Origin: Escherichia coli
GTDB lineage: Bacteria; Pseudomonadota; Gammaproteobacteria; Enterobacterales; Enterobacteriaceae
Reading direction: 5' to 3' (one strand)
Assembly: GCF_045037415.1 (NCBI RefSeq)
Contig: NZ_CP173438.1
Length of the DNA stretch: 64,000 nt
Position 1 is the stretch's first letter, and the number at the start of each line of letters is the position of its first letter. Both the position numbers and the translations under genes were made by a program. Shown in pieces: positions 588 to 57,842 of the stretch. Under the pieces are notes generated by a model. That model saw only the letters and a list, made by a program, of their open reading frames with translations, had not been told where the DNA came from and did not search any database.

Positions 588-714
588 TCCCTTCTCCACA
601 CCGTTGCCGCGTTGCGCATTCTACTTTGCGAGTCTGCTCCAGAAAATAAATCAAAGTCAGATCAATGCGTTGTGTTTATTTAATGGGGATTTACGATGGC
701 GGGACTGTACAGGG

Positions 715-860
715 CTGTAACGGTAAAGCCCTCACCGAAGCGAGGGCTTGAAGGAGAAGGGTTATGATGCGACTTGTCATCATACTGATTGTACTGTTAC
801 TCATAAGTTTCAGCGCTTATTAACAGTCAGTCACAGGGGAGGAGCAATCCCCCCTTACCC
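715..860 (-). ncRNA. sibC: SibC antisense sRNA (antitoxin of IbsC); boundaries approximate
   Basis: Sib RNAs are about 140 nt and fully complementary to the ibs mRNA; a GC stem (gccctc..gagggc) plus short U-run on the minus strand near 720-750 fits a 3' end. Ends not determined from sequence alone. Confidence 0.45.
764..823 (+). CDS. ibsC: Type I toxin IbsC, 19-aa hydrophobic peptide
   Basis: Small ORF atgatgcgacttgtcatc... encoding MMRLVIILIVLLLISFSAY with an upstream gaaggagaa Shine-Dalgarno; sits in the serA-ygfA intergenic region where ibsC/sibC lies in E. coli. Too short for the ORF track. Confidence 0.7.
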   Translation: MMRLVIILIVLLLISFSAY

Positions 861-923
861 TTACTCACTAAATTAGGTTAAAGAATCAACGATGTCAATC
901 AGGGCGATGCAGGTGTGTCGCCC

Positions 924-1472
924 TCACCACTCCCAGACTTTCGACGGTGTAACCACCGCAGGCAGTGGGATATCCCACTCTTCAACGGGGAGTTTTTCCA
1001 CCAACTGACAATCATGCGCATAACCCACCGGTTGCATTTTATAGTGCTGCCAGTTTTGTAAGGTCCGATCATAAAAACCACCGCCCATTCCCAGGCGCTG
1101 ACCGTACTCATCAAAGGCGACCAGCGGTGTAATCAACACGTCTAATCGGGAAAGGGGTAGCACGTCACGCACATCCAGTTTTGGCTCATGGATCTTCAAC
1201 TTGTTCATCACCAGTTCGCTTTGTGGATGGTAATTCAGGAACAGCAAATTACCGGCACTAAAGGGATGCAAAACTGGAAGATATACGCGCTTACCGGCGC
1301 GCCAGAGTTGTTCTATGAGTGGCTGGGTGTCGAGTTCGCCATCAAAAGAGAGGAATACAGCGACCGTATGTGCCATCACCACCGGGGGATAAGTCATCAT
1401 CCGGGTAGCGGCTTGTTGACCCATTTCCTGCTGTTGTTCCGGCGTTAACGCACGACGACGTTGCCGAATCAT
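924..1472 (-). CDS. ygfA: 5-formyltetrahydrofolate cyclo-ligase
   Basis: ORF track 924..1670; the internal start MIRQRRRALTPEQQ gives 182 aa, the known YgfA length. The longer track ORF is an artefact of read-through across ssrS. Confidence 0.9.
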   Translation of the reverse strand: MIRQRRRALTPEQQQEMGQQAATRMMTYPPVVMAHTVAVFLSFDGELDTQPLIEQLWRAGKRVYLPVLHPFSAGNLLFLNYHPQSELVMNKLKIHEPKLDVRDVLPLSRLDVLITPLVAFDEYGQRLGMGGGFYDRTLQNWQHYKMQPVGYAHDCQLVEKLPVEEWDIPLPAVVTPSKVWEW

Positions 1473-1547
1473 TTTGCGGATTTCTTGTCGGGATAATGTC
1501 AGTGGGAGTTCTGGTAATTGCGTCATGGCTGGTGCCAGATAAGAAGG

Positions 1548-1730
1548 GAATCTCCGAGATGCCGCCGCAGGCTGTAACCCTTGAACCCTTGGTTCAAGGT
1601 GAATGTGTCGTCGCAGTTTTAAGGCTTCTCGGACGGACCGAGCATGCTCACCAACCGCGGAGCGCCACATTCTTGTGGTATGAAATATCGGCTCAGGGGA
1701 CTGGCCCGCTTGCGAACATCTCAGAGAAAT
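1548..1730 (-). ncRNA. ssrS: 6S RNA, regulator of sigma-70 RNA polymerase
   Basis: Minus-strand sequence begins AUUUCUCUGAGAUGUUCGCAAGCGGGCCAGUCCCCUGAGCC and ends ...GGCAUCUCGGAGAUUCCC, the E. coli 6S RNA; about 183 nt, immediately upstream of ygfA. Confidence 0.92.
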
Positions 1731-6598: not shown

Positions 6599-7045
6599 AA
6601 ATTTCTCTTCTGCTGTTTATTTGATACCCATCACACTTTCATCTCCCGGTTTTTTCGCCGGGAGATTTTCCTCATTTGAAATAAACTAATTTCACCTGCG
6701 ATTTCGCATTATATTTTCTAATGCCACGAATTTTTGATTTAGTGTTTTTTGACATTTTTTTAGTTCTTAATGTTGTCTTATTCAAATTAACTTTCTCATC
6801 TATTTATCTTTATATAGAGATTTGTTCATTTTTTGGTTTTTTATTCTGTTACGATTTTGGCGTTTTTTAACCATAAGCTAATGTGATGATCAATTTTACC
6901 TTATGGTTAACAGTCTGTTTCGGTGGTAAGTTCAGGCAAAAGAGAACGATTGCGTTGGGGACCGGGAGTGGCTCCGATGCTGGGTTTCGTGGTGATAATT
7001 TCGCCATAGAAAAGTTGTCAGCCCCGCTTATTCAATGAGGACAAG

Positions 7046-20410: not shown

Positions 20411-21509
20411 ATGTTTGAAATTAATCCGGTAAATAATCGCATTCAGGACCTCACGGAACGCTCCGACGTTCTTAGGGGGTATCTTTGACTACGACGCCAA
20501 GAAAGAGCGTCTGGAAGAAGTAAACGCCGAGCTGGAACAGCCGGATGTCTGGAACGAACCCGAACGCGCACAGGCGCTGGGTAAAGAGCGTTCCTCCCTC
20601 GAAGCCGTTGTCGACACCCTCGACCAAATGAAACAGGGGCTGGAAGATGTTTCTGGTCTGCTGGAACTGGCTGTAGAAGCTGACGACGAAGAAACCTTTA
20701 ACGAAGCCGTTGCTGAACTCGACGCCCTGGAAGAAAAACTGGCGCAGCTTGAGTTCCGCCGTATGTTCTCTGGCGAATATGACAGCGCCGACTGCTACCT
20801 CGATATTCAGGCGGGGTCTGGCGGTACGGAAGCACAGGACTGGGCGAGCATGCTTGAGCGTATGTATCTGCGCTGGGCTGAATCGCGTGGTTTCAAAACT
20901 GAAATCATCGAAGAGTCGGAAGGTGAAGTGGCGGGTATTAAATCCGTGACGATCAAAATCTCCGGCGATTACGCTTATGGCTGGCTGCGTACAGAAACCG
21001 GCGTTCACCGCCTGGTGCGTAAGAGCCCGTTTGACTCCGGCGGTCGTCGCCACACGTCGTTCAGCTCCGCGTTTGTTTACCCGGAAGTTGATGATGATAT
21101 CGATATCGAAATCAATCCAGCGGATCTGCGCATCGACGTTTATCGCGCATCCGGCGCGGGCGGTCAGCACGTTAACCGTACCGAATCTGCGGTGCGTATT
21201 ACTCACATCCCAACCGGGATCGTGACCCAATGCCAGAACGACCGTTCCCAGCACAAGAACAAAGACCAGGCCATGAAGCAGATGAAAGCGAAGCTTTATG
21301 AACTGGAGATGCAGAAGAAAAATGCCGAGAAACAGGCGATGGAAGATAACAAATCCGACATCGGCTGGGGCAGCCAGATTCGTTCTTATGTCCTTGATGA
21401 CTCCCGCATTAAAGATCTGCGTACCGGGGTAGAAACTCGCAACACGCAGGCCGTGCTGGACGGCAGCCTGGATCAATTTATCGAAGCAAGTTTGAAAGCA
21501 GGGTTATGA
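20411..21509 (+). CDS. prfB: Peptide chain release factor 2 (requires programmed +1 frameshift)
   Basis: ATG opens a 25-codon frame ...AGG GGG TAT CTT TGA C; the +1 frame continues as [11 protein letters not shown]... into track ORF 20628..21509; GGQ motif ([13 protein letters not shown]) present. Joined product about 365 aa. Confidence 0.93.
20476..20490 (+). other. prfB programmed +1 ribosomal frameshift site (internal SD + CUU UGA C)
   Basis: Sequence agggggtatctttgac: SD-like AGGGGG, 3-nt spacer, slippery CUU followed by in-frame UGA. Confidence 0.9.
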
Positions 21510-53907: not shown

Positions 53908-56166
53908 TCAAATCAATCCTGCCAGATGGAATTCTTCATATAATCGTTTTGGCGTTAGCGGCAGTGTATTGATTGCAACACCGGTAGCCATCTTCACCGC
54001 GTTACGAATAGCAGCGGCTACAGGAATTATGGGTGGCTCACCCAGTGACTTATGTCCGTATGCGGATTGCGGCTCATTGATTTCGACGAACGCGCTTTCC
54101 AGTTGTGGCAGATCCGGCATGGTCGGCATTTTGTAATCCAGCAGATTGGGGTTACGGACCACGCCGCTTTTCGCATCGATGATCATCTCTTCAAATAGCG
54201 CCCAGCCAATGCCCATCCCCATTCCGCCGTGTACCTGACCTTCTGCCAGCAGCGGATTAAGAATATGGCCCGAATCATGAACGTTGAGGATGCGGTTGAT
54301 GGTTACTTTACACAGTGCAATATCGACCGTCAGATCAACAAAGGTACAGCCAAACGCCGGTGGGTTAGTGGTGGTTTTGATGGAGCTTTCGGCAGAGAGC
54401 TGCCCGCCGCGTTCAGGGTGGTAGAAAGCGTCCATCGCCAAATCTTTTAACGACATTAACGGCTCTTCCGGTCGTTCAACCAGCACGATATGGCCTTTTA
54501 TCAGGGTCAGATTCATCGCTGACTGATGTAGCATGACTGCGGCGTGAGCGATGATTTTCTCTTTTAATAACAGTGCCGCACTGCGCAGCGCAGGCGCGGC
54601 AACATAGCTCTGACGTGAGGCAAATGCGCCGGGGTCGAATGGTGTAACGTCGGTGTCTTGTGTCGAAATTACGCGGACATCGCTGACCGGAACTCCCACG
54701 GTTTCTGCCACCATTTGCGAGAACACGGTGTCGGCACCCTGGCCGATTTCCGTCGCGCCGCTTTGCACGTTGATGGTTCCATCCTGATTCATCAACAGGC
54801 GCGCGCCTGCTATTTCTACGCCGACAGGCCAGGTGTTAGAGGTGTAGCTAAAACAGGCGACGCCAACGCCACGACGTAAATTGCCTTGCTGGTTCTGGCA
54901 CTCTGCACGGCGTTTTTCCCATTCAAAGATTTTCCGGCCTTTTTCAAGACACTCCGGCAACCCTGCGCTGTAAATACGTTTTCCCGTGAGCGGATTAGCA
55001 TCTCCTTCGCGGGCGGCGTTGCGTAAACGAATTTCAACAGGATCAATACCTAACGCTGTCGCGGCATCATCAAGCATAGACTCAACGGCAAATACGACTT
55101 GTGGCGCGCCATAACCACGCATCGCACCAGCCGAGGGGAGGTTGGTATAGCAGGTCTTTGAACTGTAAGCGTAGGCACAACGAGGATAAAGGTAAGCGAC
55201 TTTATTCCCCCCAGCAGAAGCAATGGAGTGCCCGTGAGATGCATAAGCGCCGGTGTTAGACAGAACATCCAGACTATAACCTTTCAATGTTCCGTCGCGG
55301 TTCACGCCCATTTGCCCGTCAATAGTAAAAGCGTGGCGGGTACGGGTTGCGAGGAAACACTCTTCACGGCTAAGAGAAACTTTCACCGGAATGCCGCCAA
55401 GTTTGCTTGTCAGGAATGCCGCCATTGGCTCTTCCAGTACATCCTGTTTATTACCAAAACCGCCACCGATAAACGGTTTGATGACTCGTACGCATGACCA
55501 GGGAATATCCAGCGCCTGACCAACCACGCGGCGAACAATGTGCGGGATCTGGGTGCTGGAAACGATGGTAATTCGCGAGTCATCCTCCATCCATGCCAGC
55601 GATGTCACGCTTTCCATATGACAATGTTGAATAACGGGCGTCTGATAGTGCCCCTGTACCTGGTAGTCGGCGGCATCGATTGTTTGTTGGACATTACCCG
55701 TCGACATCGTGCTTTGTTTCAGTAAATTGCCACCGTTATGGATTGGTGCAGCGTCTTCTGCCAGCGCCGCTTCTGACGAGGTGATAACGGGTAATTCTTG
55801 CCACTCAATGCTGACCAATTGCACCGCTTTTTCTGCCGTGAGTTCATCGCGGGCTACGACGATGGCAACGGCGTCACCATGATGACGAACATGACGCGTT
55901 AGCAGGGCACGATCGGCAGTATCGCGCTTGTTTTCGTCAAGTGTCCAGGCATGCCCTGCCGTGGCGAATGGGATTTCTGGCACATCTTCCCAGGTAAAAA
56001 TCGCCAGGACGCCCGGCAAACTCCTGGCTTGTTCATCATTAATACTTACGGCATAACCATGTGCGATAGGGCTACGTACATATTTCGCGTAACACATGCC
56101 CGCCATAACATAATCGTCAGTATATCGTGCCCGCCCGGTGACCTTAGCAATGGCATCGACGCGCAT
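53908..56166 (-). CDS. xdhA: Xanthine dehydrogenase molybdenum-binding subunit
   Basis: Track ORF 53908..56205; start MRVDAIAKVTGRARYTDDY gives 752 aa. Confidence 0.93.
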   Translation of the reverse strand: MRVDAIAKVTGRARYTDDYVMAGMCYAKYVRSPIAHGYAVSINDEQARSLPGVLAIFTWEDVPEIPFATAGHAWTLDENKRDTADRALLTRHVRHHGDAVAIVVARDELTAEKAVQLVSIEWQELPVITSSEAALAEDAAPIHNGGNLLKQSTMSTGNVQQTIDAADYQVQGHYQTPVIQHCHMESVTSLAWMEDDSRITIVSSTQIPHIVRRVVGQALDIPWSCVRVIKPFIGGGFGNKQDVLEEPMAAFLTSKLGGIPVKVSLSREECFLATRTRHAFTIDGQMGVNRDGTLKGYSLDVLSNTGAYASHGHSIASAGGNKVAYLYPRCAYAYSSKTCYTNLPSAGAMRGYGAPQVVFAVESMLDDAATALGIDPVEIRLRNAAREGDANPLTGKRIYSAGLPECLEKGRKIFEWEKRRAECQNQQGNLRRGVGVACFSYTSNTWPVGVEIAGARLLMNQDGTINVQSGATEIGQGADTVFSQMVAETVGVPVSDVRVISTQDTDVTPFDPGAFASRQSYVAAPALRSAALLLKEKIIAHAAVMLHQSAMNLTLIKGHIVLVERPEEPLMSLKDLAMDAFYHPERGGQLSAESSIKTTTNPPAFGCTFVDLTVDIALCKVTINRILNVHDSGHILNPLLAEGQVHGGMGMGIGWALFEEMIIDAKSGVVRNPNLLDYKMPTMPDLPQLESAFVEINEPQSAYGHKSLGEPPIIPVAAAIRNAVKMATGVAINTLPLTPKRLYEEFHLAGLI

Positions 56167-56618
56167 GCATGATTCACCCGTAGCGGTTGCTTCCCGCGCT
56201 TCCATAGAAATCCCCTCGGTTTGAACATTTGGTTCTTATGGCAAAGATTTAGTCTTAGCAGGCAAGAATTACGCCAGAAACGACTATATGCGTGAGGGGA
56301 GGAAGGAAGTGTGATGACGTTAAAAAAACACAGATATGATACGAAACAGGACTCTGAATAGGGACAGTGATACGTATCAATATGAGTGGCGATAAAATCA
56401 ATGTGATAAATTAGGATTATTACGCATCAAGGTGGGAAATAGGGTAAAAGTCAGGAAATTCGATACCACTACAGCAAATATTTTGCTGATGATACTTCCC
56501 TTTGCCAAATGAAATTAACCTCTTTCTCTATTACATCGTTTTTCCAGAAGCAAGAGATTGGGTATCAAGAGGCTGGCTGCTATGATATGGCGTCTTGTTT
56601 TTTAAGCGAGGAAAGATT

Positions 56619-57374
56619 TTGAGTGCGGGACGCCTGAATAAAAAATCTCTGGGTATCGTGATGTTGTTATCGGTTGGACTGCTTTTGGCGGGCTGTTCGG
56701 GTAGCAAATCATCCGATACAGGAACGTATTCCGGCTCCGTTTACACCGTGAAACGGGGGGATACGCTATATCGTATTTCGCGCACCACGGGAACCAGCGT
56801 AAAAGAACTGGCGCGACTGAACGGCATTTCCCCCCCTTACACCATTGAAGTAGGTCAGAAACTAAAACTGGGTGGGGCGAAAAGTAGCAGTAGTACACGT
56901 AAATCAACCGCCAAATCCACGACCAAAACCGCATCGGTTACACCGTCATCAGCGGTACCGAAATCTTCCTGGCCGCCAGTAGGGCAACGTTGTTGGTTAT
57001 GGCCAACGACAGGGAAAGTTATCATGCCGTATTCGACAGCAGATGGCGGCAATAAAGGGATTGATATCTCAGCTCCACGAGGTACACCTATTTACGCCGC
57101 GGGTGCAGGAAAGGTGGTGTATGTGGGCAACCAGCTGCGTGGCTACGGTAATCTCATCATGATTAAACACAGTGAAGATTACATTACGGCTTACGCTCAT
57201 AATGACACGATGCTGGTAAATAATGGGCAAAGCGTGAAGGCTGGGCAAAAAATCGCCACTATGGGGAGCACTGATGCGGCATCTGTTCGCCTGCATTTCC
57301 AGATTCGTTACCGTGCAACGGCAATTGATCCGCTACGTTACTTGCCGCCTCAGGGCAGCAAGCCAAAATGCTGA
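56619..57374 (+). CDS. ygeR: LysM / M23-peptidase-domain lipoprotein (septal murein hydrolase activator)
   Basis: Track ORF 56595..57374; likely TTG start (RBS gaggaaag) giving 251 aa; lipobox LLAGCSG; C-terminal M23 (LytM) domain. Confidence 0.88.
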   Translation: MSAGRLNKKSLGIVMLLSVGLLLAGCSGSKSSDTGTYSGSVYTVKRGDTLYRISRTTGTSVKELARLNGISPPYTIEVGQKLKLGGAKSSSSTRKSTAKSTTKTASVTPSSAVPKSSWPPVGQRCWLWPTTGKVIMPYSTADGGNKGIDISAPRGTPIYAAGAGKVVYVGNQLRGYGNLIMIKHSEDYITAYAHNDTMLVNNGQSVKAGQKIATMGSTDAASVRLHFQIRYRATAIDPLRYLPPQGSKPKC

Positions 57375-57452
57375 TGGCGAATTAATCAGCAGTCAGCAGC
57401 GTGGTACTTGCTAAGGAGAGCGTAAGGTTTATAATGCCTTACGCATCTCGAA

Positions 57453-57526
57453 GCGGGCGTAGTTCAATGGTAGAACGAGAGCTTCCCAAGCTCTATACGA
57501 GGGTTCGATTCCCTTCGCCCGCTCCA
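57453..57526 (+). tRNA. glyU: tRNA-Gly (anticodon CCC)
   Basis: 74-nt sequence gcgggcgtagttcaatggtagaacgagagcttcccaagctctatacgagggttcgattcccttcgcccgctcca; cloverleaf with CCC anticodon in the cttCCCaag loop; 3' CCA encoded. Confidence 0.95.
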
Positions 57527-57842
57527 ATTTATCTTCACATCATCTACCTGCCATTTTTGTTGTATCTGATTTTCTATATTATCTTAATTCAAGCGCTTCA
57601 GACTTTTCGCAATCGCCGTAATACTTCCCCATTTTTTTGTAAATAAAAAGCGTTTACGCAATGCAATCGTCATGTATCTTAAATAGTCTTATTTAAGATG
57701 TTCAGAACTCTTTGTGTGTTTAACTGGCTGATAATTATATAATATTACGAGAGAAGTGATAGAGCGGAATAATAACAAATGAACATTATGAAAACTGGGA
57801 TGGTTCAAAATTGAAGCAATTTTGAACCATCCACAACGGATA

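Follow-up and report, generated by a model that had tools for sequence, protein, structure and literature searches.

The closest described counterparts of the locus reported here are the Ibs/Sib pairs of Escherichia coli K-12. The Sib RNAs are about 140 nt long and have been reported to be constitutive, and each of them covers an entire ibs open reading frame (ORF) together with its translation start while repressing only its cognate toxin (PMC2943612). Four of the pairs (ibsA/sibA, ibsB/sibB, ibsD/sibD, and ibsE/sibE) have the same layout as the fifth, ibsC/sibC, with a small RNA (sRNA) of 136 to 145 nt lying over an 18- to 19-codon hydrophobic ORF and its start. The K-12 paralogues also share a consensus fold and the peptide motif MM(K/R)x(V/L)II...S(F)xxY. 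The ibsC/sibC pair, whose sRNA is also known as RygC or QUAD1c, was described in 2008, had its mechanism dissected in 2010, and is found in Rfam, in EcoCyc, and in essentially every E. coli genome. According to Han et al. 2010, the ibsC mRNA is 159 nt long and, when fully paired with the 141-nt SibC, protrudes by 18 nt at its own 5' end (PMC2943612). The first contacts between a Sib RNA and its ibs mRNA spread to flanking pairing, and RNase III cuts the full duplex (PMC2943612). The toxin IbsC forms an alpha-helix, and its overexpression results in depolarization of the membrane within minutes, loss of viability, and induction of the psp operon; residues 6 to 19 are enough for toxicity (PMC8309996).

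Small hydrophobic inner membrane toxins that are encoded by an antisense-repressed mRNA and that are depolarizing when overexpressed are likewise found in ShoB/OhsC, Ldr/Rdl, Hok/Sok, TisB/IstR-1, and Zor/Orz (PMC8309996, PMC2943612). The toxins ShoB, Ldr, Hok, TisB, and Zor are longer, with 26 to 50 residues, and have no sequence relationship to Ibs. In addition, antitoxins of the ShoB/OhsC type usually overlap part of the mRNA or act in trans, whereas a Sib RNA spans the whole ORF and its start (PMC2943612).

We analyzed a 64,000-nt stretch of E. coli DNA (the window), the whole of which is 99.99% identical to, and collinear with, the genome of E. coli SA186 from serA to araE. A first-pass annotation of this DNA had placed an IbsC/SibC module in the serA-ygfA spacer, and the neighboring genes were as described: the serA coding sequence (CDS) ends at 535, and fau, which is the same gene as ygfA, lies at 924 to 1526 (- strand). 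The spacer itself (536 to 923) runs from the serA stop codon (533 to 535, + strand) to the fau stop codon. We identify the element in it as the known chromosomal type I toxin-antitoxin pair ibsC/sibC of E. coli, a reading to which we give a probability of about 0.97. In the K-12 MG1655 record, sibC (b4446, 141 nt) and ibsC (b4665) occupy the orthologous place between fau and serA. When the window was aligned with this K-12 stretch, identity was 97% and the module was free of gaps. The ORF and the peptide were identical to those of K-12 IbsC, and the sRNA matched K-12 SibC at 139 of 141 positions. One of the two differences, A to G at SibC +12, leaves the 5' hairpin with a G-U wobble in place of an A-U pair, while the other, A to U at +30, is unpaired in the predicted fold; both fall within the ibsC 3' untranslated region. 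The window and K-12 further share the Shine-Dalgarno (SD) sequence, the terminator, the sibC -35 box, and the TRD1 and TRD2 pairing domains; the sibC promoter spacer differs at one position (879). In contrast, the other four K-12 pairs are located elsewhere (yegL-mdtA and yqiK-hldE), their peptides differ at four or more positions, and their sRNAs differ extensively, chiefly in TRD1 and TRD2, on which cognate specificity depends (PMC2943612). The identification as SibC, which had been proposed from position, thus holds both by position and by sequence, as judged from alignment with all five K-12 paralogues, among which SibC/IbsC is the closest.

The ibsC CDS lies at 764 to 823 (+ strand), an assignment based on translation and on nucleotide and peptide identity to K-12 b4665. 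The frame opens with ATG-ATG at 764, contains 19 sense codons encoding MMRLVIILIVLLLISFSAY, and closes with TAA at 821 to 823. An AAGGAG SD motif, read from the sequence at 751 to 756 (+ strand), has the ATG 7 nt downstream, and AAGGA is kept in every K-12 ibs paralogue as well as in syntenic copies from other genera. Both the 19-codon ORF with a good SD and the almost purely hydrophobic, Ibs-type character of its peptide had been recognized in the first-pass annotation, and both stand. To place the hydrophobicity in context, we scored all ATG-started ORFs of 15 to 30 codons on both strands of the whole 64-kb window (n = 473) for Kyte-Doolittle hydropathy. The ibsC ORF ranked first, with a GRAVY of 2.44 compared with 2.08 for the next unrelated ORF, and it was the only one of the eight most hydrophobic small ORFs with an SD motif. 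Because it combines the top hydropathy of 473 ORFs with the sole SD among the top eight, we regard the ORF as real and not a product of chance. The peptide MMRLVIILIVLLLISFSAY belongs to the Ibs family: it falls in the range of 18 to 19 residues, nearly all of them hydrophobic, it begins with MM(K/R) and ends with S-x-x-(A/T)-(Y/F), an SD stands ahead of it, and it fits the pattern of the K-12 paralogues and of 68 homologues. A RefSeq record with 100% identity labels 764 to 823 as ibsC (WP_010723220.1). An NCBIfam search with a 20-residue IbsC query, extended by one upstream codon to the minimum query length, returned no family match, a result that carries no weight given the artificial extension. 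The earlier remark that gene callers miss this ORF applies to ab initio callers but not to RefSeq/PGAP: the PGAP-annotated SA186 record (NZ_CP022730.1) lists an ibsC CDS and no sibC noncoding RNA gene, while the curated K-12 record has both.

Opposite the ORF, sibC was located using two types of covariance model together with the gap-free alignment to K-12 b4446. First, we scanned the whole window against Rfam 15 at the gathering threshold, which returned three matches: 6S RNA at 1547 to 1730 (- strand), SIB_RNA at 898 to 748 (- strand), and a tRNA at 57453 to 57523 (+ strand). Relaxing the cutoff to E = 0.05 across the whole window yielded only 6S RNA, SIB_RNA, and one tRNA, and nothing further. 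The SIB_RNA match (RF00113; E = 2.6e-27) scored 133.7 bits, compared with a gathering score of 56, and spanned model positions 1 to 147 of 147 antisense to the ibsC ORF, in agreement with the antisense Sib RNA that had been postulated there. The first 36 positions of this model correspond to the sibC promoter. Since the model begins at the -35 box (UUGACA), its 5' end marks the promoter and not the start of the transcript. Second, we trained our own covariance model on the window copy and the five K-12 Sib RNAs. This model recovered exactly 722 to 862 (- strand) at 145.4 bits, with no match listed on the mRNA strand of the window. The sRNA is thus placed at 722 to 862 (- strand, 141 nt), and its ends, which had been no more than estimates, can now be set, using the K-12 annotation, at 862 (5') and 722 (3').

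The predicted SibC fold consists of a closing stem, a 5' hairpin, a long central hairpin that carries TRD1, a start-codon hairpin, and a terminator hairpin. Its free energy of -53.9 kcal/mol corresponds to a z score of -4.95 relative to dinucleotide shuffles of the single sequence. In the minimum free energy fold, the terminator (726 to 749, - strand) takes the form AAGCCCUCGC-UUCG-GUGAGGGCUU and is followed by UACC. A consensus terminator scan of 500 to 1000 called only the serA terminator (555 to 581); the SibC terminator was missed because it has no long T run. Taken with the K-12 data, these features suggest that SibC is an RNA of about 140 nt, here probably transcribed antisense to ibsC from an intact promoter to an intact terminator. 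The transcript has already been demonstrated for the near-identical SibC of K-12 (PMC2943612, PMC4447067), where a shorter, processed RNA has been reported too.

The sibC promoter can be read from the sequence at 870 to 898 (- strand), with a putative -35 hexamer TTGACA (898 to 893), a 17-nt spacer, and a putative -10 hexamer TAATTT (875 to 870) preceded by a C at 876. A C at -13 is a known sigma-S determinant. The transferred SibC +1 (862) is 8 nt downstream of the -10 box, and the promoter region is kept across genera. In K-12, sigma-S RNA polymerase has been found at the sibC promoter by ChIP-seq (PMC4447067). For the toxin, applying the published K-12 lengths (PMC2943612) to SibC at 722 to 862 would place the 159-nt ibsC mRNA at 704 to 862 (+ strand). 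Relative to a +1 at 704, the likely ibsC promoter is found at 670 to 697 (+ strand), where a -35 hexamer TTGTGT (670 to 675) and a -10 hexamer TACGAT (692 to 697) are separated by a 16-nt spacer; both hexamers are kept in the syntenic copies of Escherichia and Citrobacter. We infer the two promoters from their position and conservation. A sigma-70 consensus scan of 500 to 1000 called neither of them, because their -10 hexamers match weakly and the scan is too strict. The interval originally assigned to the module (700 to 870) does hold SibC and the approximate extent of the ibsC mRNA, but it omits the sibC -35 box and the probable ibsC promoter.

Two domains of SibC are expected to make the first contacts with the ibsC mRNA. 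Using the coordinates of Han et al. 2010 (PMC2943612), TRD1 (SibC +46 to +68) maps to 795 to 817 (- strand) and would pair within the ibsC ORF, while TRD2 (SibC +99 to +115) maps to 748 to 764 (- strand) and would pair with the SD and start region. Both sequences are the same as in K-12 SibC and unlike those of SibA, SibB, SibD, and SibE, and TRD1 is also identical to the probe NPSC46-68 used in that study (PMC2943612). In K-12, the TRD1 loop is sufficient alone, whereas TRD2 requires the closing stem (PMC2943612). Overexpression of the K-12 peptide, which is identical to that of the window, is toxic, and the cognate Sib relieves this toxicity (PMC8309996, PMC2943612).

From this, a working model for the locus can be put forward. 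A short mRNA from the + strand (approximately 704 to 862) would be translated from its 19-codon ORF into IbsC, a hydrophobic inner membrane peptide with a single helix; if overproduced, IbsC would depolarize the membrane and growth would stop. A strong promoter of its own (TTGACA at 898 to 893) would drive SibC, the perfect complement of the mRNA start region and ORF. SibC would first touch the mRNA through its two independent domains, TRD1 at the ORF and TRD2 at the SD and start, and pairing would then spread, blocking translation and turning the duplex into a substrate for RNase III. Together, the translation block and duplex cleavage would keep the toxin off in normal growth. The present analysis itself establishes the sequence, the family of both genes, their orthology to K-12, and selective constraint on ORF and antisense RNA. 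Toxicity, repression, the roles of TRD1 and TRD2, and the transcript ends are carried over here from K-12 work on essentially identical sequence, and it is likewise because of sequence identity with K-12 that both RNAs are presumed to be expressed in the strain of the window. Given how much of this has been described before, the importance of the locus is small beyond correct annotation, which the coordinates of SibC (862 to 722), the promoters, and the TRDs make complete here.

Only the ibsC mRNA leader adds something not yet described for this locus, and what it adds is minor. At 701 to 711, the window carries six substitutions relative to K-12 (GGCGGGACTGTACAGGG against GGCAGGGCAGCATGGGG). 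The first 8 nt of the putative ibsC mRNA contain five of them, the sixth lies at -3, and the altered leader sits in the 18-nt tail (704 to 721) that is outside SibC coverage. The K-12-type leader is predicted to form a 5'-terminal hairpin (GCAGC-AUGGG-GCUGU, -6.0 kcal/mol), and a GCAGC/GCUGY hairpin is common to Escherichia albertii, other Escherichia, and Citrobacter, with a related GCAGCAUGnUGCU stretch in Pseudocitrobacter. For the window leader, a different and longer 5' hairpin is predicted (-4.8 kcal/mol). The exact window allele occurs in 548 of 5,426 complete E. coli genomes (~10%). The rewritten leader looks like a derived, lineage-specific allele, and the start site or the stability of the toxin mRNA might differ as a result. 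If the tail sets mRNA stability or start-site choice, the allele could even naturally retune the ratio of toxin to antitoxin, an idea that we consider rather doubtful.

To characterize the distribution of the module, we searched for the DNA of the serA-fau spacer in complete E. coli genomes and found it in 5,425 of 5,426, with the RefSeq label "type I toxin-antitoxin system toxin IbsC." The sole exception is NZ_CP033605.1 (E. coli O157:H7 TR01), which appears to be without ibsC/sibC and in which the sibC query aligns best to ibsE, at 76.8%. The number of Sib-like places per E. coli genome had a median of 3 and a maximum of 6. Beyond E. coli, we searched one genome per species with the pattern AAGGGTYATGATG-N7-TCATCAT. 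There were 72 matches at 68 loci in Enterobacterales, with hosts that included E. albertii, E. whittamii, other Escherichia, Citrobacter, Kluyvera, Pseudocitrobacter, Phytobacter, Salmonella enterica subsp. arizonae and diarizonae, Hafnia, and Chimaeribacter. Copies in the serA-fau spacer, some of them in tandem, are also present in E. albertii, two other Escherichia species clusters, Citrobacter sp. MGH106, and Pseudocitrobacter. Two tandem Sib/Ibs copies occupy this spacer in E. coli SCPM-O-B-8794 (locus L026, 1 to 497) and in Pseudocitrobacter faecalis (locus L018, 2706 to 3190); the window has one. An ORF of 18 to 19 codons ending in S-x-x-(A/T)-(Y/F) was kept in 68 of the 72 copies, counter to what would be seen if the small ORF were not conserved in relatives.

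In the remaining four copies the stop or the frame has been lost, which demonstrates that relics of the family exist. It is therefore conceivable that the copy in the window is itself a decayed relic, family-like in sequence but with one or both genes no longer expressed or active. A toxin mRNA with a rewritten 5' end, as in the window lineage, would fit such decay, as would the report that K-12 SibA/IbsA is nontoxic in deletion backgrounds (PMC2943612). However, the window retains an intact ORF, SD, terminator, and sibC -35/-10 region as well as both TRDs, and the sRNA departs from the experimentally active K-12 copy at only 2 of 141 positions. Moreover, the altered leader is still predicted to form a 5' hairpin, and the same allele has been kept in 548 genomes. 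We judge decay to be very improbable and retain the identification as an ibsC/sibC pair with both partners intact.

The homologues also allowed us to ask whether the ORF evolves as coding sequence. For this we used 60 distinct 19-codon sequences and restricted the test to codons 8 to 19, which are not fixed by the search pattern. Mean column entropy was 0.56 at first, 0.24 at second, and 0.97 at third codon positions. Synonymous codon differences accounted for 44% of the total in the Ibs frame (43% in an 11-codon frame comparison), compared with 4 to 28% in the other five frames. Stops were found in none of the 60 sequences in the Ibs frame and in 27 to 60 of the 60 in other frames. Variation mostly at third positions, nearly fixed second positions, and a stop-free frame are together the signature of a translated ORF, and the ibsC frame is under coding constraint. 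A chance hydrophobic frame inside a noncoding sRNA gene, with the RNA alone being functional as, for example, a trans-acting regulator or the terminator of the ssrS-fau operon, is accordingly the least probable reading of all. In its favor are the length of the ORF, only 19 codons, and the fact that SibC comes right after fau on its strand, so that ssrS-fau read-through would stop at the SibC terminator and the RNA would have a role independent of the peptide. Against it stand these coding-type substitutions and the absence of stops across 60 homologues, the conserved length and C-terminal S-x-x-A/T-Y/F, and the toxicity of the identical peptide in published mutagenesis and overexpression (PMC8309996).

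The antisense RNA of the ibsC/sibC pair is under constraint as well. We aligned 74 strong matches (E at most 1e-18) to our covariance model and found that 90.7% of Sib cells were paired, in an alignment that was itself fitted to the model, compared with 34 to 62% when partners were slid. Changes on both sides were seen in 14 pairs; shuffles gave 8.5 +/- 1.4 (none of 500 reached 14), and slid partners gave 3 to 8. These compensatory changes clustered in three elements, namely the terminator helix (helix 6), where 6 of 11 pairs were affected, the 5' hairpin, and the base of the central hairpin; the invariance of the start-codon hairpin (helix 5) is imposed by the search pattern. G-U pairs were frequent in the aligned Sib structures. 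Scored with the same model, the Sib strand reached about 145 bits, whereas the mRNA strand of the homologous loci never exceeded 33.5 bits. The frequent G-U pairs, together with a Sib-strand score far above that of the mRNA strand, place the structural constraint on the antisense RNA.

Several further observations concern the surroundings of the module. Only 25 nt separate the fau stop codon (924 to 926) from the sibC -35 box, which follows it on the same strand, and the consensus scan of 500 to 1000 called no terminator-like site between fau and sibC (863 to 926, - strand). Read-through from ssrS-fau would cross sibC, with the SibC terminator as its probable stopping point, and would thereby add antisense RNA over ibsC. 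The 6S RNA gene (ssrS, 1547 to 1730, - strand) is a full-length Rfam match of 139.8 bits and is annotated in the SA186 record. On the other side, just after the serA terminator, 12 nt at 586 to 597 (TATCCCTTCTCC) are 92% complementary to the ibsC SD and start (753 to 764) and resemble TRD2 of SibC. We considered this segment as a cis-acting anti-SD element for ibsC and dropped it, as chance alone should produce approximately 0.3 matches of this kind in 500 nt (an estimate) and the resemblance is probably fortuitous.

Elsewhere in the window, the region between yqeG and actS (approximately 55800 to 57600) contains only a tRNA-Gly gene (57453 to 57523, + strand) in the SA186 record. K-12 presumably carries the ETT2 ygeF-ygeK island near this yqeG-actS region, and the lineage of the window looks ETT2-less. 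In the gcvT-ubiI spacer, the SA186 record annotates a 27-residue "hypothetical protein" (WP_122083101.1) at 6672 to 6755 (- strand). Finally, prfB, encoding release factor 2 (20411 to 21509, + strand), is annotated in the SA186 record as two pieces joined by a programmed frameshift, which is a known feature of this gene.
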